From the NCBI GenBank assembly GCA_964525635.1, contig CAZGJX010000048.1:1-28531 (forward strand): a DNA stretch of 28,531 nt. Direction: 5' to 3'. The notes under the pieces were generated by a model. It had not been told where the DNA came from. It searched no databases and saw only the letters and a program-made list of their open reading frames with translations. Below are positions 13,550 to 28,355 of the stretch, one piece after another (within the stretch, counting starts at the first letter, position 1; each line of letters starts with the position of its first letter). The position numbers and the translations under genes were made by a program. Source of the DNA: an uncultured archaeon. GTDB lineage: Archaea > Asgardarchaeota > Lokiarchaeia > Sigyniarchaeales > SOKP01.

Positions 13550-14050
13550 TTGGCTCAAGATATTGCTTATAAATTGACAAGTAAAGATAAAAGTAGTATT
13601 TTAGACGTTTTAAATCATTATAACAGTGATAAAACTAATCTAATTTCAATTTTACAGGAAGTACAAAATTTATTTGGATTCTTGTCCCGTAATGTTATTT
13701 ATTTTCTTTCAAGAAAGCTGAAAATGTCTCCTGCTGAAATTTATGGAGTTGCTACTTTTTATACACAATTTAAATTTAAAAAAATTGGTAAATATTTAAT
13801 TGTATGCTGTGATGGGACCGCTTGCCACGTAAAAGGATCTACATTAATACTCAATTTTATAGAGGGATTCTTAGAAATTAAACCTGGAGAAACAACAAAA
13901 GATAAATTATATACTTTGGAATCAGTAGCATGTCTTGGATGTTGTGCTATTTCTCCCGTGTGTATAATAAATGGAAAAACATACGGAAATTTAACGACTA
14001 ATAAAATTAAGAGAATCCTAACGAAATTGGAAAAAAAAAGTAAGGTATGA
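13550..14050 (+). CDS. nuoE: NuoE/HydC-like [2Fe-2S] subunit (BfuC type)
   Basis: LISILQEVQ, YGVATFYTQF, CDGTACHVKG, CLGCCAISP; TTG start with GAAGTGA upstream. Confidence 0.92.
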   Translation: MAQDIAYKLTSKDKSSILDVLNHYNSDKTNLISILQEVQNLFGFLSRNVIYFLSRKLKMSPAEIYGVATFYTQFKFKKIGKYLIVCCDGTACHVKGSTLILNFIEGFLEIKPGETTKDKLYTLESVACLGCCAISPVCIINGKTYGNLTTNKIKRILTKLEKKSKV

Positions 14051-14057
14051 ATCAAAA

Positions 14058-15878
14058 ATGGAACTCAATTATCAAAAAAGAACTGTTTTAGTTTGCCGAG
14101 GTTCTGGTTGTAATTCTATGAATGCAGGGAGTATTTATACTTTATTAAATGAACTTATCCAAAAGAAAAATCTAACGGATTTTATTGATGTTAAATTAAC
14201 TGGTTGTCACGGGTTTTGCCAAGTGGGACCTACATTAATAATTCAACCAGATGATATATTATATATTCATTTAAATGTTAATAAAATAGAAGAAATTATT
14301 GATAATCATTTAATAAATAACAATATTGTTGAAAAATATCTTTACAAGGATCCAGAAAGTGGTGAATACATTAAAGACATCAACAATATTAGATTTTATA
14401 AAGAACAATATCCCATTATTACAGAGAAATGTGGAAAAATAAATCCAGAAGATATTAATGAATATATTACAAAGGGAGGATATGAATCATTTAAAAAAGC
14501 AATAAAAGAATTTAATCCTTTAGATGTCATTGAGGAAGTTAGAAGATCTGGACTGAGGGGTCGAGGTGGAGCTGGATTTTTAACTGGTCAAAAATGGAAA
14601 TTCTGTTATCAAGCACCTGGAAATCCTAAATATTTGATTTGTAATGCAGATGAGGGCGATCCTGGTGCTTTTATGGATAGGACAATATTAGAAAGTGATC
14701 CTCATAGTGTCATTGAAGGAATGCTTATTGGAGCATATGCAATAGGTGCATCTCAAGGATATGCGTATATCAGAGCAGAATATCCTCTCGCTATAAAAAG
14801 ATTTGAAATTGCTTTACATCAAGCAGAAGAAGCAGGTCTTCTTGGAAAGAATATTCTTAATACTAAGTTTAATTTCGATATAAAATTAAAAAAAGGAGCA
14901 GGGGCTTTTGTTTGTGGTGAGGAAACGGCATTAATGGCTTCAATTATGGGTAAAAGAGGTATGCCAAAACCAAAACCTCCTTATCCGGCAACTTCTGGAT
15001 TATGGAAAAAACCAACTAATATCAATAATGTAAAAACTTATGCAACAATTCCGAAAATTATTGAAAAAGGTGCAGAATGGTTCAGATCAATTGGAACTAA
15101 AGATGCTCCTGGAACAATTGTTTTAGCTTTGACAGGGAAAATTAACAATTCAGGATTAGTAGAATTACCATTAGGGTCATCTATTAGAAAACTAATATAT
15201 GATATTGGAGGGGGTATTCCAAATAATAAAAAATTTAAAGCAGTTCAAACAGGGGGACCTTCAGGGGGTTGCATTCCTGAAAAATTTTTAGATACTCCCT
15301 TAGATTATCAACATTTAACCGAACTGGGATCAATCATGGGTTCTGGAGGTTTTATTGTATTAGATGAAGATAGTTGTATGGTAGAACTAGCTCGATATTT
15401 TATTGAATTTACTCAAAATGAATCATGTGGTAAATGCACTCCTTGTAGAATTGGTACAAAAAGAATGTTAGATATATTAACTAAAATTACCAATGGAAAA
15501 GGTACTTTAGAGGATTTAAATGATTTGGAAAAAATAGCAAACATAGTTAAAAATACTAGTCTCTGTGGTTTGGGTCAAACGGCTCCAAATCCTGTTTTAA
15601 CAACTATAAAATATTTCAGAAAAGAGTATGATGCTCATATTTTAAATAAGAGTTGTCCAGCTTTAGTTTGCGAGAATTTAATCGAATATCATATAAATCA
15701 AGAATTATGTACTGGTTGTGGTTTGTGTAAAATAAATTGTGCCTCTAAAGCAATTGAAGGAGAACAGAAAAAACCTCATATTATTTCCCAGGAATTATGC
15801 ATTAAATGTGGTGTTTGTTTCAGTACATGTTCCTATAATGCTATATATAAAAAAACAAACGAGATTAAGAATGAGTGA
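14058..15878 (+). CDS. nuoF: NuoF/HydB-like FMN/NAD-binding subunit with electron-bifurcating (BfuB) architecture
   Basis: N-terminal thioredoxin-like [2Fe-2S] (CRGSGC...GCHGFC), SGLRGRGGAGF, NADEGDPGAFMDR, GAGAFVCGEETAL, ESCGKCTPCR...SLCGLG, DSCMV...HILNKSCPALVC, and two C-terminal [4Fe-4S] motifs. Confidence 0.95.
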   Translation: MELNYQKRTVLVCRGSGCNSMNAGSIYTLLNELIQKKNLTDFIDVKLTGCHGFCQVGPTLIIQPDDILYIHLNVNKIEEIIDNHLINNNIVEKYLYKDPESGEYIKDINNIRFYKEQYPIITEKCGKINPEDINEYITKGGYESFKKAIKEFNPLDVIEEVRRSGLRGRGGAGFLTGQKWKFCYQAPGNPKYLICNADEGDPGAFMDRTILESDPHSVIEGMLIGAYAIGASQGYAYIRAEYPLAIKRFEIALHQAEEAGLLGKNILNTKFNFDIKLKKGAGAFVCGEETALMASIMGKRGMPKPKPPYPATSGLWKKPTNINNVKTYATIPKIIEKGAEWFRSIGTKDAPGTIVLALTGKINNSGLVELPLGSSIRKLIYDIGGGIPNNKKFKAVQTGGPSGGCIPEKFLDTPLDYQHLTELGSIMGSGGFIVLDEDSCMVELARYFIEFTQNESCGKCTPCRIGTKRMLDILTKITNGKGTLEDLNDLEKIANIVKNTSLCGLGQTAPNPVLTTIKYFRKEYDAHILNKSCPALVCENLIEYHINQELCTGCGLCKINCASKAIEGEQKKPHIISQELCIKCGVCFSTCSYNAIYKKTNEIKNE

Positions 15879-18800
15879 TAATAATTTAAAAAAAGGTAAA
15901 ATATTCATAGATAATAAAGAAATAGATTTTATAGAAGGAGAAACTATATTAGAAGCAGCTAATAAGGCTGAAATCTATATACCCACTCTATGTTATATTA
16001 AAGGATTAGAACCCTATGGAGGGTGTCGTCTGTGTATAGTACAAATCGAAGGAATGAAGGGATATCCTCCTGCTTGTACGACCCCTGCTCAAGAAGGTAT
16101 GAAAATAAAAAATAATGATGATGAAATTTTAGATTTTAGAAAAGAGATATTTGAACTGTTGCTTAGTGAACATCCATATTCATGTCTAATTTGTTCAAAT
16201 AAAGAAAATTGTGAAAAAATCCGGGATAATGTTGATAAATTTGGGAGAATATTTGGATGTTTTACATGTGCTAGTAAAGATTCATGTGAACTCAGGAAAA
16301 TTGCAGAATATTTAGGTATTGAAGAGATTCCTTATGAATTAGAATATCATAATTATCCTCTCAAGAGAGATGATCCTTTTTTTGAAAAAGATTATAATTT
16401 ATGTATCCTATGTGGTAAATGCGTTAGAATATGTAATGATTTAAGAGGAGTTGGTGCTATAAATTTCATAAATCGAGGGCATAATACTCAAATTTCAACT
16501 GAATTTGATTTACTAAATGTTAATACAGATTGCCAATTTTGTGGTTCTTGTGTTGATATTTGTCCAACTGGAGCATTAAGTTCAAAAAATACAAAATGGG
16601 ATATAGGAAATACAGAAGCTAAGTCATCTGTATGTGGTTTTTGTAGCGTTGGATGTGGATTTGATTATTACTCCAGGCAAGGAGAATTATTTGAATCAAT
16701 ACCAAATAATGAAAATATAATAAATAAAGGTCATGGATGTGTTATTGGAAGGTTCTGTCCTCCTCAATTTAATAATGGAAGAGATAGACTTAAATATCCT
16801 TCAATAAAAGAAAATGGAGAATTAATTCCATCTGATTGGGAGAATATTTATTCTAAAATAAAAGAGAATTTAGAAAAATACGATCCTAAAGAAATTGCCT
16901 TTCTGGTATCACCTAATTTATCTAATGAATCTGCTTATTTATTAAATAAATTTGCTAATAGTGTTATTAAAACAGAGAATATTGCAATTATTTCTAATAA
17001 TAATTCTATTGATATATATTATAACTTATTAAAAAATAATCTAAATAAAGATTACTTATGTAGATCTATTCAAGATATTGAAAAAGCAGAATTATTAATA
17101 TTAATCAATACTAATATTCAGAAATCTCATCCTGTATTGTTTAATCATTTATTTAAAGCAAGAAAAAATGGATCCAAAATTATATCTCTTAATTTAAATA
17201 ATATCAAATCATCAACAATAACAAAGAGAATTTTAGACTATGAAATAAACTTCTCAAAAAAAGAACTTATTCTATTTTTATTAGAGTTATCAAAAAGATT
17301 ATCTGAAGGTATTAATGAATTTAAATTGGCGAATTTTGATTATAAATCGTTTTATAATTATATAAAAGATTTTAAATACAATGAAAAAAATCATAAGGAG
17401 AATGGATTAATTGATGATTTTATTAGTACTATAAAAAAATCAGAACAATCTAAAAGTATAATTCTAGTAGACTTAGACAGAAATTTATCGGATAATTATA
17501 TTGAGGATTTAATAGGAACTCTATTTAATTTATTAATTCTTTTAGATAATAAAATTGATCTAATTCCATTATGGCATTATGGAAATAAAGAAGGTGTATT
17601 TCAAAATATTTCATATAATATCAAACCGAAATCTATCAAAGATATTATAAATAATATAAAAAATAATCAAATAAAATTACTTTACCTTACTGAAAGATTT
17701 GAAAATCCTGAGATATTGAATAATATTGAATTTATCATATTACAAGATATTTATTCATCTAATAATTATGATTTAGCAGATATTATTTTACCTACTTGTA
17801 CATATTTAGAGGATTCTGGAACTTTTTTAAATGCTGAACTAAAAAGCCAAAATTTTCTTAAAATTGCTGATAGTAAAGGATATTCTAAACCTGATTGGCA
17901 AATTATAAGTGAATTAGGAAAAACCTTTGGAAATAATTATGTAAGAGATTTTTCATTTGATAATTCAAAAGATATCTATAAAGAATTGATGTTGGAGAAT
18001 CTCTATTTTAATGATGATTTAAATAGAGAAACTAAAAAGAATCTGAAATTTCATTTTCCCGATCTACAGAAGATTTATTTTAATGAAGATTTAGATTCAT
18101 TCGGTCTGAGATCTTTTGTTTATAGAGGTGAACCTATTTATAATCAAGTAGATGATTTAAGGGAGCTAATTAATTTTAATGAGTCTCTAAAAGATGATTC
18201 AGCTGATGAAATTAAAAAGCAAGAACAAATAAAAACTCAGTTTAAAGTATTATCTAATAAAGAAATAGTACCAAATACATTTGAGCTTATTGTTGAAGCT
18301 CCCTTAATAGCTAAGAAAGCAAAACCAGGAAACTTCGTCATTATAATGAAAAACCAAGAAAGTGAGAGATTACCAATGACTCTTTCAGATTGGAATATCG
18401 ATCAGGGATTAATAAAAATATATTATCAAGAAAAGGGGTTCTCTACAAGAGAATTAACTTCTCTTAAAAAAAATGATTATATTTTTAGTATTGTTGGTCC
18501 TTTGGGTAAAGAGTATCCAATCAAACATTATGGTACTGTATTATTAGGTGGGGGTTGCTATGGCAATGCTGCAATTTACCCTATAGGAAAAGCGTTAAAA
18601 GAAGCAGGTAATAAAATAATCATTATTTTAGAAGGAAAAAATAAGGATTTATTCTATTTGATAAACGAAATTGAAGAAATTTCAGATGAAATTATTTATT
18701 GTACTTCAGATGGCTCAAAAGGATTAAAAGGGAAGATAGATATTGGAATAAATTATGCACTTAATAAAGAAAAGAAAATTGATAGATGTCATTTTATTGG

Positions 18801-19113
18801 TTGTAATTATATGATGATGGATGCTTCAGAAAAAACGAAGATCTCTGGAAATATCCCAACAACTGTTTCTTTAAGTACTATTATGATTGATGGTACTGGT
18901 ATGTGTGGAGGATGTAGACTTTCACTAATTGAAAATGAAAAAGAAATAACAAAATTTGCATGTGTTGATGGGCCAATATTTGATGGTCATTCTATAAATT
19001 GGAGCGAATTAATTCATAGACAATATCGATTTAACTTTGATGAAACACAAATATATCAAACACATAGTTGTAAGTTAAAAGCTTTTATAAAAGAGGGAGA
19101 GAAAAATGAGTGA
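15871..19113 (+). CDS. Fusion: NuoG/FdhA-like Fe-S wire + degenerate molybdopterin-fold domain + NfnA (SudB/FNR-like) domain
   Basis: The true start is probably ATG 15871 (MSDNN), overlapping the nuoF stop; the ORF track start at 15739 lies inside nuoF. Motifs: IPTLC...GGCRLC...PAC, HPYSCLIC, CILCGKCVRIC, CQFCGSCVDICP, CGFCSVGC...GC-x2-GRF, ADIILP...EDSGTFLN...KPDWQII. From about 18241 NfnA: APLIAKKAKPGNF, ERLPMT, GPLG, DGTGMCGGCR, FACVDGP. Confidence 0.9.
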   Translation: MSDNNLKKGKIFIDNKEIDFIEGETILEAANKAEIYIPTLCYIKGLEPYGGCRLCIVQIEGMKGYPPACTTPAQEGMKIKNNDDEILDFRKEIFELLLSEHPYSCLICSNKENCEKIRDNVDKFGRIFGCFTCASKDSCELRKIAEYLGIEEIPYELEYHNYPLKRDDPFFEKDYNLCILCGKCVRICNDLRGVGAINFINRGHNTQISTEFDLLNVNTDCQFCGSCVDICPTGALSSKNTKWDIGNTEAKSSVCGFCSVGCGFDYYSRQGELFESIPNNENIINKGHGCVIGRFCPPQFNNGRDRLKYPSIKENGELIPSDWENIYSKIKENLEKYDPKEIAFLVSPNLSNESAYLLNKFANSVIKTENIAIISNNNSIDIYYNLLKNNLNKDYLCRSIQDIEKAELLILINTNIQKSHPVLFNHLFKARKNGSKIISLNLNNIKSSTITKRILDYEINFSKKELILFLLELSKRLSEGINEFKLANFDYKSFYNYIKDFKYNEKNHKENGLIDDFISTIKKSEQSKSIILVDLDRNLSDNYIEDLIGTLFNLLILLDNKIDLIPLWHYGNKEGVFQNISYNIKPKSIKDIINNIKNNQIKLLYLTERFENPEILNNIEFIILQDIYSSNNYDLADIILPTCTYLEDSGTFLNAELKSQNFLKIADSKGYSKPDWQIISELGKTFGNNYVRDFSFDNSKDIYKELMLENLYFNDDLNRETKKNLKFHFPDLQKIYFNEDLDSFGLRSFVYRGEPIYNQVDDLRELINFNESLKDDSADEIKKQEQIKTQFKVLSNKEIVPNTFELIVEAPLIAKKAKPGNFVIIMKNQESERLPMTLSDWNIDQGLIKIYYQEKGFSTRELTSLKKNDYIFSIVGPLGKEYPIKHYGTVLLGGGCYGNAAIYPIGKALKEAGNKIIIILEGKNKDLFYLINEIEEISDEIIYCTSDGSKGLKGKIDIGINYALNKEKKIDRCHFIGCNYMMMDASEKTKISGNIPTTVSLSTIMIDGTGMCGGCRLSLIENEKEITKFACVDGPIFDGHSINWSELIHRQYRFNFDETQIYQTHSCKLKAFIKEGEKNE

Positions 19114-20524
19114 TACAAAGAAAAAGAAAAGGCGCATTGATCTTCCAAGAAATAAAATGCCTGAACAAAATCCAAATTTAAGAAATAAAAATTTCAAGGA
19201 AGTTAATTTAGGTTATACTAATGAGATGGCGAAAGCAGAAGCAGAAAGATGCTTACAGTGCGAAAAACCTTTATGTGTTGAGGGTTGTCCTGTTAATATC
19301 AACATACCTGGATTCATTAAATTTATCAAAGAAGGTAATTTAAAAGCTTCTATTGAATGTATAAAAGATTATAATATATTACCTGCTGTATGTGGAAGAG
19401 TATGTCCTCAGGAAGTACAATGTGAGGGAAAATGTATTCTAGGTAAAAGATTCGAACCTGTAGCTATAGGGCATCTGGAAAGATATGTTGCTGATTGGGA
19501 AAGAGCTAATAAAATAAATGCTTGTCCTGAATGTAAATCTCCAAATAATATTAAAATAGCAATTATAGGATCTGGTCCTGCAGGAATTACATGTGCCGCA
19601 GAACTTGCTAAAGAAGGTTATGATATAACAATTTATGAGGCCTTTCATAAAGGTGGTGGTGTCCTTGTATACGGTATTCCTGAATTTAGATTACCTAAGG
19701 AAATCGTAGCAACTGAAATCAATACTCTGAAATCACTTGGAGTAAAAATAGAATATAATATGATAATAGGTAAAATCTTGACTATTGATGATTTATTTAA
19801 TATGGGATATAAAGCAATATTTATTGGTATAGGAGCAGGAACTCCAATATTCTTGAATATCCCAGGCTCGAATTTAAAAGGTGTTATATCAGCAAATGAA
19901 TATTTAACAAGGATAAATTTAATGAAAGCATATGACTTTCCAAATTATAAAACTCCTGTATCTTTAGGAAAATATGTTACTGTCATAGGGGGGGGAAATG
20001 TAGCTATGGATGCTGCTAGATCTGCATTAAGACTTGGAGCAGAAAAAGTTATTATTGTATATAGGCGTGCATTAGAACAAATGCCTGCAAGGAAAGAGGA
20101 AATCCATCATGCACAGGAAGAAGGAATTGAATTTAAGCTTCTCACGAATCCTTTGCGATTTATTGGAAATATCTATGGTAATGTTACAGAAATGGAAGTT
20201 ATAAAAATGAAGCTTGGAGAACTAGATGCATCAGGTAGAGCTAGTCCTATCCCTATAGAGAACTCAGAATTTCGTATAAAGACAGATTTAATAATTAATG
20301 CGATTGGAAATAATTCTAATCCATTATTAACTTCTACCTATCCTATATTAGAATTAAATAAATGGGGTAATATTGTAGCTGATGAGGATGGGAGGACTAA
20401 TGTTGATAGCATTTATGCGGGAGGTGATATCGTTACTGGTACAGCTACCGTAATTTCAGCAATGGGTGCTGGGAGAAGAGCAGCAAAGGCAATAAATGAA
20501 TATTTAATTGGCTTAAATAACTAA
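19106..20524 (+). CDS. nfnB: NfnB / SudA / GltD-like NADP(H)-binding Fe-S flavoprotein
   Basis: NFKEVNLGY, RCLQCEKPLCVEGCPV, CGRVCPQEVQCE, IGHLERY, GSGPAG, YGIPEFRLPK, GGGNVAMDAAR, YRR, AGGDIVTG; directly follows the NfnA domain with an 8-nt overlap. Confidence 0.9.
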   Translation: MSDTKKKKRRIDLPRNKMPEQNPNLRNKNFKEVNLGYTNEMAKAEAERCLQCEKPLCVEGCPVNINIPGFIKFIKEGNLKASIECIKDYNILPAVCGRVCPQEVQCEGKCILGKRFEPVAIGHLERYVADWERANKINACPECKSPNNIKIAIIGSGPAGITCAAELAKEGYDITIYEAFHKGGGVLVYGIPEFRLPKEIVATEINTLKSLGVKIEYNMIIGKILTIDDLFNMGYKAIFIGIGAGTPIFLNIPGSNLKGVISANEYLTRINLMKAYDFPNYKTPVSLGKYVTVIGGGNVAMDAARSALRLGAEKVIIVYRRALEQMPARKEEIHHAQEEGIEFKLLTNPLRFIGNIYGNVTEMEVIKMKLGELDASGRASPIPIENSEFRIKTDLIINAIGNNSNPLLTSTYPILELNKWGNIVADEDGRTNVDSIYAGGDIVTGTATVISAMGAGRRAAKAINEYLIGLNN

Positions 20525-23746: not shown

Positions 23747-24211
23747 ATGACGATAGATGAAACTTTTATTGATAAAACTATAGAAAAAAATAATAGGTCT
23801 CTTATCTCTATTTTACAGGATATACAAGAAAGTTATAATTATTTACCTGAAGAGTCTCTTATTAAAGTTGCAGAAAAAATGCAAATTCCGCTGATAGATG
23901 TATATTCAGTAGTTACATTTTACCATTCATTCTGTCTTATTCCTAAAGGTGAGTATATTATTACTGTTTGTTTAGGAACTGCATGTTATATACGAGGTGG
24001 AAAAAAAATAGTTGATTTATTAACAAAAGAATTGGAAATAATACCAGGGGAGACTACAAAAGATAATAAATTCACACTTGAAACAGTTAATTGCCTTGGT
24101 TGTTGTGCTATTGGACCTATCGTAAAAATAAATAATGAATATCATGGAGAGATGACTCCAAATAAGACAAAGAAACTTATAAAGTCCTTGAAGAGGGAAA
24201 AAAATGACTAA
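23747..24211 (+). CDS. nuoE: NuoE/HydC-like [2Fe-2S] subunit (second copy)
   Basis: LISILQDIQ, YSVVTFYHSF, VCLGTAC, CLGCCAIGP. Confidence 0.92.
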   Translation: MTIDETFIDKTIEKNNRSLISILQDIQESYNYLPEESLIKVAEKMQIPLIDVYSVVTFYHSFCLIPKGEYIITVCLGTACYIRGGKKIVDLLTKELEIIPGETTKDNKFTLETVNCLGCCAIGPIVKINNEYHGEMTPNKTKKLIKSLKREKND

Positions 24212-26042
24212 ATTACTCTCAATAAATGAATTCGATAAAATATCTAAGAAGATTACAGAACGTCAGGATTTTAATAAACATATTATCTCTATATCTTCGG
24301 GTACATGTGGACATGCAAGTGGTTCCATTAAGGTTGCAGAAGCATTAAAACAAGCTGTTAAAGGATATGAAGACAAAATTAGTATAAAACTGACAGGATG
24401 CCATGGATACTGTGCGGCAGAACCTAATATAATAATCTTCCCCCAAAAAGTTTTTTATAAAAATTTAAAGCCAGAGGATGCACCAAATATAATACAATCT
24501 ATATTAAAAGGAGAGATAATTGAAAACTTAGTTATTAAAGAGAATGGAATCAATTATACCCATATTGATGAAATTCCTTTTTATAAATACCAAAAGAATA
24601 TTCTTATAGGAGATAATCCGCTTATAGATCCTAAAAATATCGAAGATTATATAGCAATTGGTGGATATAAAGCATTTTCTAAAGCTTTATGTATGCGACC
24701 TAATGAAATTATTGAAGAGATAAAGAAATCTGGATTGCGGGGTAGGGGAGGAGCAGGATTTTCAACAGGGATTAAATGGGAAGTAGCAAGTAAACAAAAA
24801 AGTGATACAAAATATATAATTTGTAATGCTGATGAAGGGGATCCTGGTGCTTATATGGATAGAAATCTGCTTGAAGGTAATCCACAATTAATTATTGAAG
24901 GTATGATAATCGGGGCTTATGCAATAGGTGCAAATAAGGGATGGATTTATGTTCGAGATGAATATCCCCTTGCTGTGAAGAATATCACAATAAATATTAA
25001 GCAAGCTAGGGAAATGGGCTTTCTTGGTAAAAATATCCTTGGTTCAAGTTTTGATTTTGATATACAAATTACTCGTGGTGCAGGTGCTTTTGTTTGTGGG
25101 GAAGAGACAGCTCTTATTCAATCTATAGAAGGTAAAATAGGTGATCCACGTCAGCGACCTCCTTATCCCGCTCAAATGGGCCTTTTTGGCAAACCTACAA
25201 ATATAAATAATGTAGAAACATGGGCTAATATTCCTAAAATAATTGATAAAGGTGCAGACTGGTATGCTAACATCGGTACCAAGACGAGTAAAGGTACAAA
25301 GATTTTCTCACTCGTTGGTAAAGTTAAAAATACCGGATTAGTTGAAGTACCTATGGGTATTACAATAAAAGATATTGTATATAATATTGGAGGTGGATCT
25401 CCAACTGATCGTAAAATTAAAGCTATACAAACAGGGGGTCCCTCTGGTGGATGTATTCCAGAAGATCTATTTAATTTACCTATCGATTATGAATCGCTTA
25501 AACAGGCTGGATCTATAATGGGATCGGGAGGAATGATTGTATTGGATGAAGATACTTGTATGGTTGATTTTGCAAGGTACTTTACAAATTTCTTACAAAA
25601 TGAATCATGTGGTAAATGCTCATCCTGTAGAGAGGGTATTCAGCGTATGTTTGAAATATTAACAGATATAACCGAAGGTAAAGCAAATGATACAAGTATT
25701 GAGCTACTTGAAGAGCTTGGTAGTGTAATAAAAGATACTTCTTTGTGCGCCCTTGGTCAAACTGCCCCAAATTCTGTACTCACTTCAATTAGATATTTTA
25801 GAAATGAATATATTGCTCATATAAAAGATAAGAAATGTTTCGCAGGAGTCTGTCGGGCATTAATAAGATATAAAATAGATAAAGAGATATGCACTGGTTG
25901 TGGTGTATGTAAAATAAATTGTCCTGAGGGAGCAATAGTAGGTGAATTGAAACAGCCACACCTTATTCTTCAAGATAAATGTATTAAATGTGGAATTTGT
26001 CATGATAATTGCAATTTTAACGCAATTAATTTGGATGTATAA
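24204..26042 (+). CDS. nuoF: NuoF/HydB-like FMN/NAD-binding subunit with BfuB architecture (second copy)
   Basis: GCHGYC, SGLRGRGGAGF, NADEGDPGAYMDR, GAGAFVCGEETAL, ESCGKCSSCR...SLCALG, DTCMV...HIKDKKCFAGVC, CTGCGVCKINCP, CIKCGICHDNC. Confidence 0.95.
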   Translation: MTKLLSINEFDKISKKITERQDFNKHIISISSGTCGHASGSIKVAEALKQAVKGYEDKISIKLTGCHGYCAAEPNIIIFPQKVFYKNLKPEDAPNIIQSILKGEIIENLVIKENGINYTHIDEIPFYKYQKNILIGDNPLIDPKNIEDYIAIGGYKAFSKALCMRPNEIIEEIKKSGLRGRGGAGFSTGIKWEVASKQKSDTKYIICNADEGDPGAYMDRNLLEGNPQLIIEGMIIGAYAIGANKGWIYVRDEYPLAVKNITINIKQAREMGFLGKNILGSSFDFDIQITRGAGAFVCGEETALIQSIEGKIGDPRQRPPYPAQMGLFGKPTNINNVETWANIPKIIDKGADWYANIGTKTSKGTKIFSLVGKVKNTGLVEVPMGITIKDIVYNIGGGSPTDRKIKAIQTGGPSGGCIPEDLFNLPIDYESLKQAGSIMGSGGMIVLDEDTCMVDFARYFTNFLQNESCGKCSSCREGIQRMFEILTDITEGKANDTSIELLEELGSVIKDTSLCALGQTAPNSVLTSIRYFRNEYIAHIKDKKCFAGVCRALIRYKIDKEICTGCGVCKINCPEGAIVGELKQPHLILQDKCIKCGICHDNCNFNAINLDV

Positions 26043-26056
26043 TTTGAGGGATATGA

Positions 26057-26755
26057 ATGCCAAAAATAAAAATTGATGGAATTGAGTTTGATTGTTCAGA
26101 AAATTCAACAATACTTGATGTCGCTAAAATATTAGGAATAGATATACCAACTCTCTGCTATCACGAGGGCCTTTCAAGATGGGGTGGCTGTCGTTTATGT
26201 ATTGTTGAAATAGGAAGAGATGAAAATACTAAACTAGTTTCCTCGTGTACATATCCTGTTCAAGAAGGTCTTATTGTTCGAACTGCAAGTAAAAGGGTTA
26301 TTAATGCAAGAAAAATGATACTTGAACTTTTAATTGCACAAAATCCAACTTCCAAGGTATTACAAGATCTTGCATCAAAAATAGGTTTAAAAGAGGTCAG
26401 ATTCAAACCAAAATGGGAAACTTGTATTTACTGTGGTTTGTGTGTAAGGATATGTAAAGAACAGATGATGGCAAATGCTATTGGATTTGTTAATAGAGGA
26501 AATAAGTTAAAAATAACTACCCCCTTTGATAAAAATTCGGAGGATTGTCGAAGATGTGGTGCGTGCATGTATATATGCCCAGCATGTACAATAAGATGTG
26601 ATGGCCCCAATCCAGAAAGCGTGTTATGTAATGGCTGTTACAATGCACTCCAACCTACATGTTTGGAAGTTTATGATAATTTTTCATGTTGGATGGGATT
26701 AAAAGGTGAATGTGGAACATGTGTAGATATATCAAAGAATCAAAAAAATAAATGA
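26057..26755 (+). CDS. Short NuoG/HoxU-like Fe-S subunit with Cys-rich C-terminal tail
   Basis: IPTLC...GGCRLC...SSC [2Fe-2S]; CIYCGLCVRIC and CRRCGACMYICP; no H-x3-C-x2-C motif; no catalytic domain; GAGGGA upstream. Confidence 0.88.
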   Translation: MPKIKIDGIEFDCSENSTILDVAKILGIDIPTLCYHEGLSRWGGCRLCIVEIGRDENTKLVSSCTYPVQEGLIVRTASKRVINARKMILELLIAQNPTSKVLQDLASKIGLKEVRFKPKWETCIYCGLCVRICKEQMMANAIGFVNRGNKLKITTPFDKNSEDCRRCGACMYICPACTIRCDGPNPESVLCNGCYNALQPTCLEVYDNFSCWMGLKGECGTCVDISKNQKNK

Positions 26756-26774
26756 ATAAAAGGAGATATGAAAA

Positions 26775-28355
26775 ATGGTAAACTTTAAAATAAATGCTTC
26801 AGCTGCAACTCTGTCAAAGAATAGAACTGAGGATTCAGTTGTGCCTGAAAGTGGAATGTGTGCTACTTGTATAGATGGTTGTATTGGTATGTGTGAAGTT
26901 GGAAAATCTGCATATAGAGGTTCAGAAGTACTATATCCAAAACCATTTGGTATGATAACAACTGCAGGTGTAAAAAACTATCATATAAACTTCTCTGATT
27001 TTACAATACAAGGTACATGTATAGGAGCATATGGTATTGATGCCGATTCTGATACCGCTTTGTTCACGAATGTGAATTTAGAACAAAAAATAGGTCATGA
27101 TAAAAAAATAAGGGTAAAACTTCCTATTATTCTTCCAGGACTTGGTTCGACATCTGTAGCGAAAAATAATTGGGAAGGGCTTGCTATTGGAGCAGCACTT
27201 TCAGGAATAATTGTTACAGTTGGTGAAAATGTATGTGGTATGGATCCAAATTCAAAAATACAAAATGGAAAGATTGTATATTCAGAAGATCTTAAAAATC
27301 GAATTAATCTCTATAAAGAATGGCAACAAGATGGTTATGGCGGTATTGTTGTTCAAGCAAATGTAGAGGATACAAAACTTGGCGTACATGAATATGCAAT
27401 AGATAAATTAGGAGTTGAAATAGTAGAACTCAAATGGGGGCAAGGAGCTAAAGATATTGGTGGAGAAGTAAAATTAAAAACTTTACAGCATGCCCAAAGA
27501 CTTAAAGATAGGGGATATATTGTTCTGCCAGATCCATATGATCCAACTGTTATAAATTCATTTGAAAACCATGTTTTTAATGAATTTGAGCGCCATTCAA
27601 GGGTAGGTATGGTAAATGAGGAGACATTCTATAAACGAGTAGAAGAATTAAGATCTTTAGGTGCGAAATATATTTTTTTAAAAACAGGAGCATATAGACC
27701 TAGAGATTTAGCTCTTGCAGTAAAATGTGCATCTGAAGCGAAGATTGATTTGTTAACAGTAGATGCAGCAGGAGGTGGAACAGGAATGAGTCCATGGAGG
27801 ATGATGAACGAATGGGGTGTACCCCGTTTTGAGCTTTGGTCATTTCTTTATCAATATATTGATAAATTATCGAAGAAAGGGAAATATGTACCTGATATTG
27901 CAATTGCCAGTGGTATTTCTATGGAAGATCAGATAATTAAAGGTTTAGCATTAGGTGCCCCCTATTTTAAAATGATAGGTATGGCTAGAGCACCTCTTGC
28001 AGCAGCAATGGTGGGTAAAACAATAGGTAAAAGTATAGATAGTGGTGAATTACCTGTATATATTTCCCGTTTTGGAAGAACAAAAGAAGAAATTTTTATA
28101 ACAACTCCTGAACTTCAACATAAATTTGGGGCTAAATTCGACTCGATACCTACAGGTGCAATTGGTTTATATACTTATATAACTAGACTTAAGCAAGGAC
28201 TTCAACAATTGATGTGCGGAGCAAGAAAATTTGCATTAAAATATATTAGAAGAGATGATATTGCTTCATTAACACATGAAGCAGAGGATATAACTGGAAT
28301 CCCATTTATAATGGATTCAGATAAAGAAGAAGCTGAAAAACTTCTTGATTTCTAA
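26775..28355 (+). CDS. FMN-binding glutamate synthase family protein, non-canonical type (second copy)
   Basis: SGMCATCIDGCIGMCEV, RGSEVLYP, GLGST, VGENV, NVEDTKLGV, ELKWGQGAKDIGGEV, FERHSRVG, KTGAYRP, DAAGGGTGMSP; AAGGAGA RBS; 19 bp after the short nuoG. Confidence 0.9.
   Translation: MVNFKINASAATLSKNRTEDSVVPESGMCATCIDGCIGMCEVGKSAYRGSEVLYPKPFGMITTAGVKNYHINFSDFTIQGTCIGAYGIDADSDTALFTNVNLEQKIGHDKKIRVKLPIILPGLGSTSVAKNNWEGLAIGAALSGIIVTVGENVCGMDPNSKIQNGKIVYSEDLKNRINLYKEWQQDGYGGIVVQANVEDTKLGVHEYAIDKLGVEIVELKWGQGAKDIGGEVKLKTLQHAQRLKDRGYIVLPDPYDPTVINSFENHVFNEFERHSRVGMVNEETFYKRVEELRSLGAKYIFLKTGAYRPRDLALAVKCASEAKIDLLTVDAAGGGTGMSPWRMMNEWGVPRFELWSFLYQYIDKLSKKGKYVPDIAIASGISMEDQIIKGLALGAPYFKMIGMARAPLAAAMVGKTIGKSIDSGELPVYISRFGRTKEEIFITTPELQHKFGAKFDSIPTGAIGLYTYITRLKQGLQQLMCGARKFALKYIRRDDIASLTHEAEDITGIPFIMDSDKEEAEKLLDF

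Follow-up and report, generated by a model that had tools for sequence, protein, structure and literature searches.

Two types of transhydrogenases acting on the nicotinamide adenine dinucleotides NADP(H) and NAD(H) and on ferredoxin, NfnSL (also called NfnAB) and StnABC (also called NfnABC), are the described systems closest to the one considered here. StnABC, a type 1 enzyme of the Bfu family, is devoid of any NfnA homologue, and Nfn is devoid of any HydBC homologue (PMC10482914). NfnSL and NfnABC have been described as unrelated and usually mutually exclusive (PMC12018979, PMC7483475). The survey of the Bfu family, which left out metagenomic data, includes Nfn-Bfu only with an NfnL-like domain located inside BfuA (PMC9304861), and the survey of Nfn architectures distinguishes four patterns, none of them with a NuoG-like partner (PMC6405883). 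A full-text search of the literature, which covers searchable papers only, retrieved no published description of an architecture combining a Bfu core with NfnSL. Such an architecture is found in the window analysed here, i.e. the whole 28,531-nucleotide (nt) stretch of contig CAZGJX010000048.1 from the genome of an Asgard archaeon. Its + strand operon located at 13550-20524 encodes a Bfu (HydBC-type) core wired to both Nfn subunits via a NuoG/formate dehydrogenase (Fdh)-like subunit devoid of cofactor, as an earlier sequence-only reading of this DNA had proposed.

The complex is a Bfu enzyme with a modified NfnSL as third-substrate module. Its new features are a Bfu-linked clade of NfnS with a remodelled NAD pocket and, in the partner BfuA', a second C-x2-C-x5-C motif. 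The four genes of the operon probably encode one soluble complex made of an Nfn-type module and a Bfu (HydABC-type) core.

Organization of the operon

The operon comprises four + strand genes, with an 8-nt overlap at each of the last two junctions:

13550-14050, + strand: bfuC, NuoE/HydC-like, 166 amino acids (aa), thioredoxin-like [2Fe-2S] domain (C1 cluster; Pfam 2Fe-2S_thioredx, E = 3.5e-47)
14058-15878, + strand: bfuB, NuoF/HydB-like, 606 aa (Pfam and alignment to solved BfuBs)
15871-19113, + strand: bfuA'::nfnS' fusion, 1080 aa (ATG in ATGAGTGA, Pfam, orthologues and AlphaFold2)
19106-20524, + strand: nfnL, NfnB/GltD-type, 472 aa (Pfam Fer4_20 and Pyr_redox_2; matches to 4ylf_B and 5jca_L)

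The gene order, strand and overlaps are as the sequence-only reading described them, apart from the start of the fusion. Its frame was listed mechanically from the GTG at 15739, and the true start is the ATG at 15871, within ATGAGTGA. This start yields both the 8-nt overlap with bfuB and the 1080-aa product (P0001), whose numbering is used below for the fusion. The overlap between the fusion and nfnL corresponds to 19106-19113. The motifs that had been quoted (GDPGAFMDR, H-x5-C-x4-C, DGTGMCGGCR, YGIPEFR and YRR) are each present where they had been placed.

The fusion product displays the Pfam domains Fer2_4, NADH-G_4Fe-4S_3, Fer4_Nqo3, Molybdop_Fe4S4, Molybdopterin (residues 306-684) and DHODB_Fe-S_bind (residues 1003-1042).

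A Bfu-linked clade of NfnS with a remodelled NAD pocket

Over its last 300 residues, the fusion matches NfnS from P. furiosus (5jca_S, E = 2.4e-66) and NfnA from T. maritima (4ylf_A, E = 1.2e-61). Residues 789-1060 of the AlphaFold2 model superpose on 5jca_S with a Z of 35.2 and a root-mean-square deviation (rmsd) of 2.4 Å over 263 residues. This domain, hereafter NfnS', carries the following features, FAD being flavin adenine dinucleotide:

18238-19050, + strand: NfnS' domain, with an ERLPMT FAD barrel, a remodelled dinucleotide-binding domain and an Asp+3Cys [2Fe-2S] site (matches to 5jca_S and 4ylf_A)
18391-18393, + strand: W841, clade-specific (Trp in 39/40 Bfu-linked versus 8/64 canonical NfnS)
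18556-18558, + strand: C896, replacing the third Gly of GGG-x-G and giving GGC[YF]G (Cys in 40/40 Bfu-linked, Gly in 64/64 canonical NfnS)
18802-18804, + strand: C978, replacing the Pro of xGP and giving GC (Cys in 40/40 Bfu-linked, Pro in 64/64 canonical NfnS)

These counts come from 104 NfnS sequences classed by alignment column into 40 Bfu-linked (Cys) and 64 canonical sequences. The two cysteines are strictly paired, mixed cases being absent (0/104). In the window, NfnS' reads GGC896YG and GC978, the canonical NAD(H) motifs GGG-x-G and xGP being absent from it. The [2Fe-2S] motif DGTGMCGGCR (18889-18918) provides D1007, C1012 and C1015, the fourth ligand being C1031, and both the FAD and the [2Fe-2S] motifs are invariant in the alignments. 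In a tree computed without these signature columns, a single branch still separates the Bfu-linked from the canonical NfnS (SH-aLRT 87). Bfu-linked NfnS is therefore a separate clade with a remodelled NAD pocket.

In the model, C896 ends the strand 889-894 before the helix 898-911, and C978 ends the strand 972-976 before the helix 979-991. The FNR-type dinucleotide-binding fold has the strand order 3-2-1-4-5, and the strands ending in C896 and C978 would presumably be adjacent, lining the NAD pocket beside the flavin. NfnS' has probably lost NAD(H) binding, for which NfnII from P. furiosus, whose altered NAD domain goes with an absence of NAD-dependent activity, provides a precedent (PMC6405883). 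The sequence-only reading had assumed a complete NfnAB. Both subunits are indeed encoded, but the clade-wide remodelling of the NAD(H) pocket of NfnS' means that the pair is not canonically complete.

BfuA', an iron-sulfur wire on an empty scaffold

The N-terminal part of the fusion, BfuA', carries the A1 cluster, the His-ligated A2 cluster, two ferredoxin-type clusters, the Molybdop_Fe4S4 cluster (A5) and an extra three-Cys motif. Its main features are:

16171-16287, + strand: doubled His-cluster motif, H101-x3-C105-x2-C108-x5-C114 followed by C130-x2-C133-x5-C139 (alignments)
16375-16767, + strand: two ferredoxin-type [4Fe-4S] motifs (C178-C188 and C221-C231) and A5 (C255, C258, C262 and C290) (Pfam Fer4_Nqo3 and Molybdop_Fe4S4)
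16786-18195, + strand: molybdopterin/formate dehydrogenase-like scaffold devoid of cofactor (Pfam Molybdopterin 306-684 and fold match)

The seven ligands of the doubled motif, whose halves are separated by about 15 residues, are invariant in 60 fused proteins and would suffice for the A2 [4Fe-4S] cluster and one extra putative centre. In HMMER alignments, each half aligns to the single motif of the other BfuA/FdsA chains. The doubled C-x2-C-x5-C is present in every BfuA adjoining an NfnS of the Cys class, so that the signatures of BfuA' and NfnS' co-vary. The one BfuA that adjoins a canonical NfnS, at locus L059, has a single motif. BfuA' is closest by sequence to NfnA from C. saccharolyticus (Csac NfnA, 9bov_A; E = 1.5e-70, Z 32.7). 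Residues 10-105 of the query correspond to residues 5-100 of this chain, and residues 128-295 to residues 561-729. The doubled motif therefore brackets the point where the NfnL-like domain is inserted in NfnABC/Stn.

All the cysteines of the ferredoxin-type and A5 motifs are invariant among the aligned relatives. Residues 6-780 of the model superpose on the alpha subunit of formate dehydrogenase, on NuoG and on Csac NfnA (Z 32-34). The sequence-only reading had noticed that the Fdh-like domain does not possess the Mo/W ligand. Direct reading of the aligned segment bears this out, NESAYLLNKFANSVIKTENIAIISNN (16924-17001) containing neither Cys nor Sec and thus no Cys/Sec-His pair, and Pfam finds no Molydop_binding domain (domain IV) in it. 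As in Stn, the Fdh-like domain is therefore a scaffold.

In the alignment, a block equivalent to residues 390-590 is missing from the relatives of about 890 and about 830 aa, in which the A5 ligands are retained. The conservation of these ligands suggests that A5 is needed although the pterin site is gone, and the shorter relatives show a scaffold undergoing erosion.

NfnL and the Bfu core

NfnL aligns over nearly its full length with NfnB from T. maritima (4ylf_B, E = 3.5e-175) and matches NfnI-L from P. furiosus (5jca_L, E = 7.9e-156). Its matches to GltD, i.e. the glutamate synthase small chains, and to the NfnL-like domains of NfnABC/Stn are far weaker (about 1e-80 to 1e-97). It carries two [4Fe-4S] clusters, the proximal one with the ligand Glu103 in CPQE. 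R195, in YGIPEFRLPK, is the Arg by which bifurcating NfnB forms a hydrogen bond to FAD-N5, and YRR (319-321) belongs to the NADPH site. All the hallmarks of the bifurcating site are thus present. E103, R195 and YRR do not vary among 31 Bfu-linked and 55 canonical NfnL sequences.

No class-specific residue was found in NfnL at the 85%/10% or 70%/20% thresholds (36 Bfu-linked versus 50 canonical sequences). In the NfnL tree, Bfu-linked and canonical sequences interleave, at least six class changes being required, and the NfnL of the window groups with canonical NfnL from its own family. Taken with the signatures of NfnS' and BfuA', this absence of any NfnL signature indicates that the NAD pocket of NfnS' and BfuA' itself, and not the bifurcating subunit, have adapted to the Bfu partner.

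The nearest solved relatives of the bfuC product are Csac NfnC (9bov_C, E = 3.9e-48), HydC from T. maritima and NfnC from T. sibiricus. BfuB displays the Pfam domains Complex1_51K and NADH_4Fe-4S and a C-terminal 2x[4Fe-4S] domain. It contains the GDPGAFMDR motif and comprises an N-terminal [2Fe-2S] cluster (B5), a flavin mononucleotide (FMN)/NADH site, the B1 [4Fe-4S] cluster, the B2 site and the C-terminal 2x[4Fe-4S] (B3 and B4) for ferredoxin docking. Residues 8-598 align to NiFe-BfuB from A. mobile (7t2r_B, E = 1.4e-243), and further alignments were obtained with HydB from A. woodii (7q4v_B) and NfnB from T. sibiricus (9n5u_B) and C. saccharolyticus (9bov_B), the E-values ranging from 1e-198 to 1e-243. 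These alignments cover nearly the whole protein, and the subunits matched are BfuBs whose bifurcating nature is established by structures. The B2 site is located as follows:

15375-15671, + strand: B2-site ligands C440, T478, H527, C533 and C538 of BfuB (alignment to 7t2r_B)

H527-x5-C533-x4-C538, together with C440 and T478, are the counterparts of C438, C476(T), H525, C531 and C536 of A. mobile. Schut et al. named these B2-site ligands and noted that the His is absent from non-bifurcating homologues (PMC9304861). The sequence features that identify the Bfu family, i.e. the BfuB domains, the B2 His site, the [2Fe-2S] of BfuC and both A1 and A2 of BfuA, are all found here. Judged by its motifs, the Bfu core is intact, all the BfuB cluster motifs being kept, including the B2 His/Cys site.

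The window contains a second Bfu-type operon (23747-28355), which comprises a nuoE-like gene, a nuoF-like gene, a short bfuA of 232 aa and a gene encoding a Glu_synthase-domain FMN protein. Its nuoF-like gene is 55% identical to the first one, and these only two BfuB genes of the genome are 8 kb apart.

Occurrence of the fusion and of the operon

Relatives of the fusion were sought among 5.8 billion proteins. Orthologues of 1080-1082 aa, displaying 76% and 66% identity, are encoded by independent Asgard assemblies. More broadly, the long form (1030-1100 aa), down to 44% identity, is found in many such assemblies. The form of about 890 aa is also found in Asgard archaea, and that of about 830 aa in Deltaproteobacteria, Hydrogenedentes, Dehalococcoidia and Kiritimatiellae. 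These shorter forms lack the centre of the Fdh-like domain and retain all the cluster ligands. A genome of the same genus has the same long open frame, and the AlphaFold2 model of the whole chain is confident (predicted local distance difference test, pLDDT, 85.6; predicted template modelling score, pTM, 0.83). The fusion junction is therefore genuine. Misassembly, considered as its source, is ruled out by the occurrence of the same junction in independent assemblies and phyla.

The order bfuC-bfuB-bfuA'-nfnS'-nfnL is kept in 13 further Asgard loci. According to tblastn searches of species-representative genomes, it also occurs in Thermoplasmatota, Aminicenantes, Bacillota, Bacteroidota, Desulfobacterota, Planctomycetota, Hydrogenedentota, Verrucomicrobiota and Ignavibacteriota. 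In most of these species-representative loci, bfuA' and nfnS' are separate adjacent open reading frames (ORFs), and they are fused in Asgard archaea and several bacterial phyla. Genes that are split in some lineages and fused in others usually encode proteins working in contact. With fused and split forms taken together, the operon spans Thermoplasmatota, Methanothrix and about ten bacterial phyla. At an Asgard locus (L101:8021-8050), bfuA' and nfnS' lie in one frame, with a lone TAG followed by an ATG, i.e. one codon short of a fusion. Recoding of TAG was considered for the Asgard NfnS matches and rejected: at L101, the one that was read, this TAG is the bfuA' stop located directly before the nfnS' ATG.

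Among 201 sampled genomes of the same phylum, 126 carry an NfnS-like gene, 26 of which score E = 1e-74 or better. All the high scorers retrieved are Bfu-linked (13/13), and all the lower scorers retrieved belong to ordinary nfnSL pairs (7/7). In two Asgard genomes (locus L100 in G139 and L101 in G107), the Bfu-linked operon and a classical-type NfnSL lie about 6 kb apart. The downstream small subunit of these two loci (L100:14754-18106 and L101) has 639 aa. It starts with a Pyr_redox_2 domain (thioredoxin reductase-like), and its GP and GGG motifs are canonical. This Pyr_redox_2-NfnS is another undescribed Nfn fusion.

Methanothrix carries a rearranged version of the operon. At L006:6986-10274, bfuC-bfuB-bfuA' is accompanied by a separate nfnS' (8-nt overlap) bearing the Cys signature, with no nfnL in the operon. 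At L008 and L011, nfnL is divergent and located beside a second bfuA' paralogue. Another variant, found in Hydrogenedentes (L014:3873-7004) and also at L059, encodes a 1043-aa fusion of BfuB to a GltD-like module (Complex1_51K, NADH_4Fe-4S, Fer4_20 and Pyr_redox_2), this module replacing the C-terminal ferredoxin-docking domain. The operon also has bfuA'::nfnS' and nfnL, and this variant would carry four flavin sites.

In the window, the operon is flanked by guaA and a gene encoding a PPDK_N-domain protein. No flanking gene occurs in more than 5 of 29 related loci, these five being closely related. The sequence-only reading had suggested that the complex might supply NADPH or ferredoxin to neighbouring FMN enzymes, an idea that finds no support in this gene context.

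Possible electron routes

According to the preferred reading, for which the chances are about equal either way, the complex is a transhydrogenase acting on NADP(H), NAD(H) and ferredoxin, with the NAD(H) site of NfnS replaced by BfuABC. At its bifurcating FAD, NfnL would take the hydride from NADPH, its two [4Fe-4S] clusters facing ferredoxin. NfnS' would keep its FAD and its Asp/Cys [2Fe-2S], would have lost the classical NAD(H) pocket and would be covalently joined to the C-terminus of a BfuA-type wire bearing a cofactor-less Fdh-like scaffold and an extra Cys motif. The high-potential arm would run from the [2Fe-2S] to the FAD of NfnS' and then to a BfuA' cluster instead of NAD+. The receiving cluster may be the extra centre at residues 105-139, i.e. 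the Stn insertion point, or A5, beside the empty pterin site. Electrons would then follow the BfuA chain to the FMN of BfuB and to NAD(H), and the net chemistry would remain NADP(H)/NAD(H)/ferredoxin transhydrogenation. C896 and C978 could be metal ligands, make up a dithiol or do no more than keep NAD out. What the sequences establish is the set of parts with its cofactor motifs, the fusion, the operon and the signatures of NfnS' and BfuA'; the loss of NAD binding, the electron route, its direction and the stoichiometry are inferred. That the products form one complex is proposed because the fusion recurs, the operon order is conserved and no other neighbour is conserved.

An alternative raised in the sequence-only reading, the bypass of one of the two centres, is close to this proposal: the clade-specific change in the NAD pocket of NfnS' favours the bypass or replacement of a site. 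The first possibility of that reading, in which electrons from NADPH would be split at NfnB and again at NuoF, fares differently. With E' values of about -280 mV for NADH, -500 mV for ferredoxin and -380 mV for NADPH (PMC9304861), the conversion of 4 NADPH into NADH and 6 reduced ferredoxins would move electrons from a donor at about -380 mV to products whose mean potential is about -445 mV. Such serial splitting is thermodynamically excluded in the NADPH-oxidizing direction.

Several points weigh against the preferred reading. The family is known from genes and one predicted chain model, the loss of NAD binding would follow from just two motif changes, and the contact of NfnS' with any BfuA' cluster is putative. 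The full bifurcating core (B2-B5 and BfuC) is retained, which is unexplained if BfuABC merely supplies an NAD(H) site. Furthermore, the Methanothrix loci have no nfnL in the operon, and the co-occurrence with a classical-type NfnSL hints that the two are not simply redundant.

In a Stn-like route, an unlikely one on the whole, NfnL would be only an NADPH dehydrogenase whose two [4Fe-4S] clusters dock on the extra BfuA' centre, both electrons would pass down the wire, BfuBC would be the sole bifurcating site and NfnS' would be a clamp or a side branch. Besides the fully conserved Bfu core, this route has in its favour the closeness of BfuA' to Csac NfnA noted above and the position of the extra Cys motif, which is that of the inserted NfnL-like domain in Stn/NfnABC, whose distal cluster feeds the chain (PMC10482914). 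However, NfnL has a Glu ligand where Stn has a Lys, and retains the Arg. NfnL also displays no clade-specific surface change and mixes with canonical sequences in the tree, which would be unexpected if its ferredoxin face were a permanent interface. Likewise, invariant FAD and [2Fe-2S] motifs in NfnS', with changes clustered in the NAD pocket, would be unexpected for a mere clamp.

No better placed is the hypothesis of a true two-centre enzyme, in which a flavin-only site (the FAD of NfnL) and a flavin/iron-sulfur site (BfuBC) would be coupled via the flavin of NfnS' and linked by a new metal or dithiol centre. The clade-specific cysteines of NfnS' may build this linking centre together with the extra motif of BfuA'. 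If true, such an enzyme would have a stoichiometry or a driving force beyond those of Nfn and Stn.

Somewhat more doubtful is a scheme in which both centres are active, the Bfu core confurcating NADH and reduced ferredoxin onto the wire towards the high-potential arm of NfnL while a second ferredoxin feeds the low-potential arm. The net reaction would be about NADH + 6 reduced ferredoxins -> 4 NADPH, feasible in that direction only. The hallmarks are complete at both sites, and arithmetic on published potentials (PMC9304861) makes NADP+ reduction exergonic and the opposite direction endergonic. Proposed assemblies of two modules offer precedents, namely Bam-Bfu with HdrA (PMC9304861) and the HdrA-NfnB fusions of ANME-1 (PMC9012536). 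However, about 12 kJ per NADPH would be dissipated, in organisms thought to be energy-limited.

The remodelled pocket of NfnS', with its paired cysteines and Trp by the FAD, might instead bind another high-potential substrate, for example a disulfide or a sulfur compound, which would be a fourth substrate; this seems improbable. The two invariant cysteines stand at strand ends near the flavin site, the strands being presumably adjacent if the usual strand order applies. For NfnII from P. furiosus, a high-potential acceptor of unknown identity has been suspected (PMC6405883, PMC7483475), and some genomes keep a classical Nfn too. However, the Cys changes track Bfu linkage and the extra BfuA' motif perfectly, which points to an internal partner. 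Furthermore, the flanking genes of the 29 loci were searched for a clue to such a substrate, and no candidate gene of a substrate pathway is conserved nearby.

Finally, two independent enzymes (Bfu-type and Nfn) merely co-transcribed, or a misassembled fusion, can be all but set aside: bfuA' and nfnS' are separate ORFs in many bacteria, but the same junction recurs in independent assemblies and phyla, the gene order is conserved across domains, the signatures of NfnS' and BfuA' co-vary, and BfuA' without NfnS'L would have no catalytic module.

Role in the genome and significance

In the genome carrying the window (4.45 Mb, marker-gene completeness 100%), neither a canonical NfnSL nor a Stn-type gene is present. 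A second NfnL-like match was considered as a possible Nfn and rejected. It is a Fer4-GltD-CCG fusion (L083:7461-10217, contig C12), the sole other NfnL-like gene of this genome, whose 918-aa product combines two HdrB-type CCG domains with a 4Fe-4S dicluster and a flavin module resembling GltD/NfnL. Because no other Nfn-type enzyme was found in this Asgard genome, the complex probably serves as the chief connection of the NADPH pool with those of NADH and ferredoxin and, for the same reason, probably runs toward NADPH from NADH and reduced ferredoxin.

More largely, a widespread complex holding all the parts questions the dichotomy between NfnSL and NfnABC/Stn and allows the study of flavin-only and flavin/iron-sulfur bifurcating sites within one protein. 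It also suggests a possible origin of Stn-type enzymes. As the Stn insertion point coincides with the doubled motif, the family might even be an evolutionary link between both types of transhydrogenases. Asgard redox metabolism furthermore bears on models of the origin of eukaryotes. For annotation, the combination of GGC[YF]G and GC in NfnS' with a doubled C-x2-C-x5-C in BfuA' provides a simple rule for these genes, which are named 'sulfide/dihydroorotate dehydrogenase-like FAD/NAD-binding protein' by NCBI.

Comparison with known systems

The classical NfnSL/NfnAB (T. maritima 4YLF/4YRY; P. furiosus NfnI 5JCA) shares with the complex an NfnL of orthologue grade (Arg near FAD-N5, Glu ligand of the proximal cluster and arginines of the NADPH site), as well as the fold, FAD motif and Asp+3Cys [2Fe-2S] of NfnS'. 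However, it is a free heterodimer without any HydBC homologue (PMC10482914), whereas NfnS' is here fused or adjacent to a BfuA wire, displays the G-to-C and P-to-C changes and the Trp, and is encoded in an operon with a full BfuBC core.

StnABC/NfnABC (type 1 Bfu: S. ovata 8OH5, C. saccharolyticus 9BOV and T. sibiricus 9N5U) shares the BfuBC core, a BfuA with a dead Fdh-like domain, NADPH as presumed third substrate and a special BfuA site at the same position. Its own features are an NfnL-like domain inside BfuA, a Lys-ligated cluster, a non-bifurcating FAD and the absence of NfnS, the Lys ligand of the proximal cluster occupying the position of the NfnL Glu ligand (PMC10482914). By contrast, the complex described here combines NfnS' with a separate canonical NfnL bearing the Glu ligand, and nothing but the three-Cys motif occupies the insertion point. 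The difference from Stn/NfnABC that the sequence-only reading had drawn from the lack of NfnA/NfnS in the latter is confirmed (PMC10482914), no insertion being present at residues 105-139.

In NfnII/Xfn from P. furiosus (5VJ7), as here, the small subunit has a divergent NAD domain; this enzyme has no NAD-dependent activity, and its high-potential arm must end elsewhere. Its motif changes are different (the GP is kept), it is devoid of Bfu linkage, and its partner is unknown. Pairings of two bifurcation-capable modules have also been proposed for Bam-Bfu (class II benzoyl-CoA reductase) and for the HdrA-NfnB fusions of ANME-1, but their second module is HdrA, their substrates are different and they have no NfnS. 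SfrAB from Geobacter sulfurreducens likewise combines a NuoG/Fdh-like subunit without catalytic site and a separate GltD/NfnB-like NADPH subunit (PMC7483475), but no NuoE/NuoF core or NfnS is reported for it. Finally, the Mo/W-bisPGD formate dehydrogenases carry the Cys/Sec-His ligand and the pterin-capping domain IV, both of which are absent from the complex encoded by this Asgard operon.

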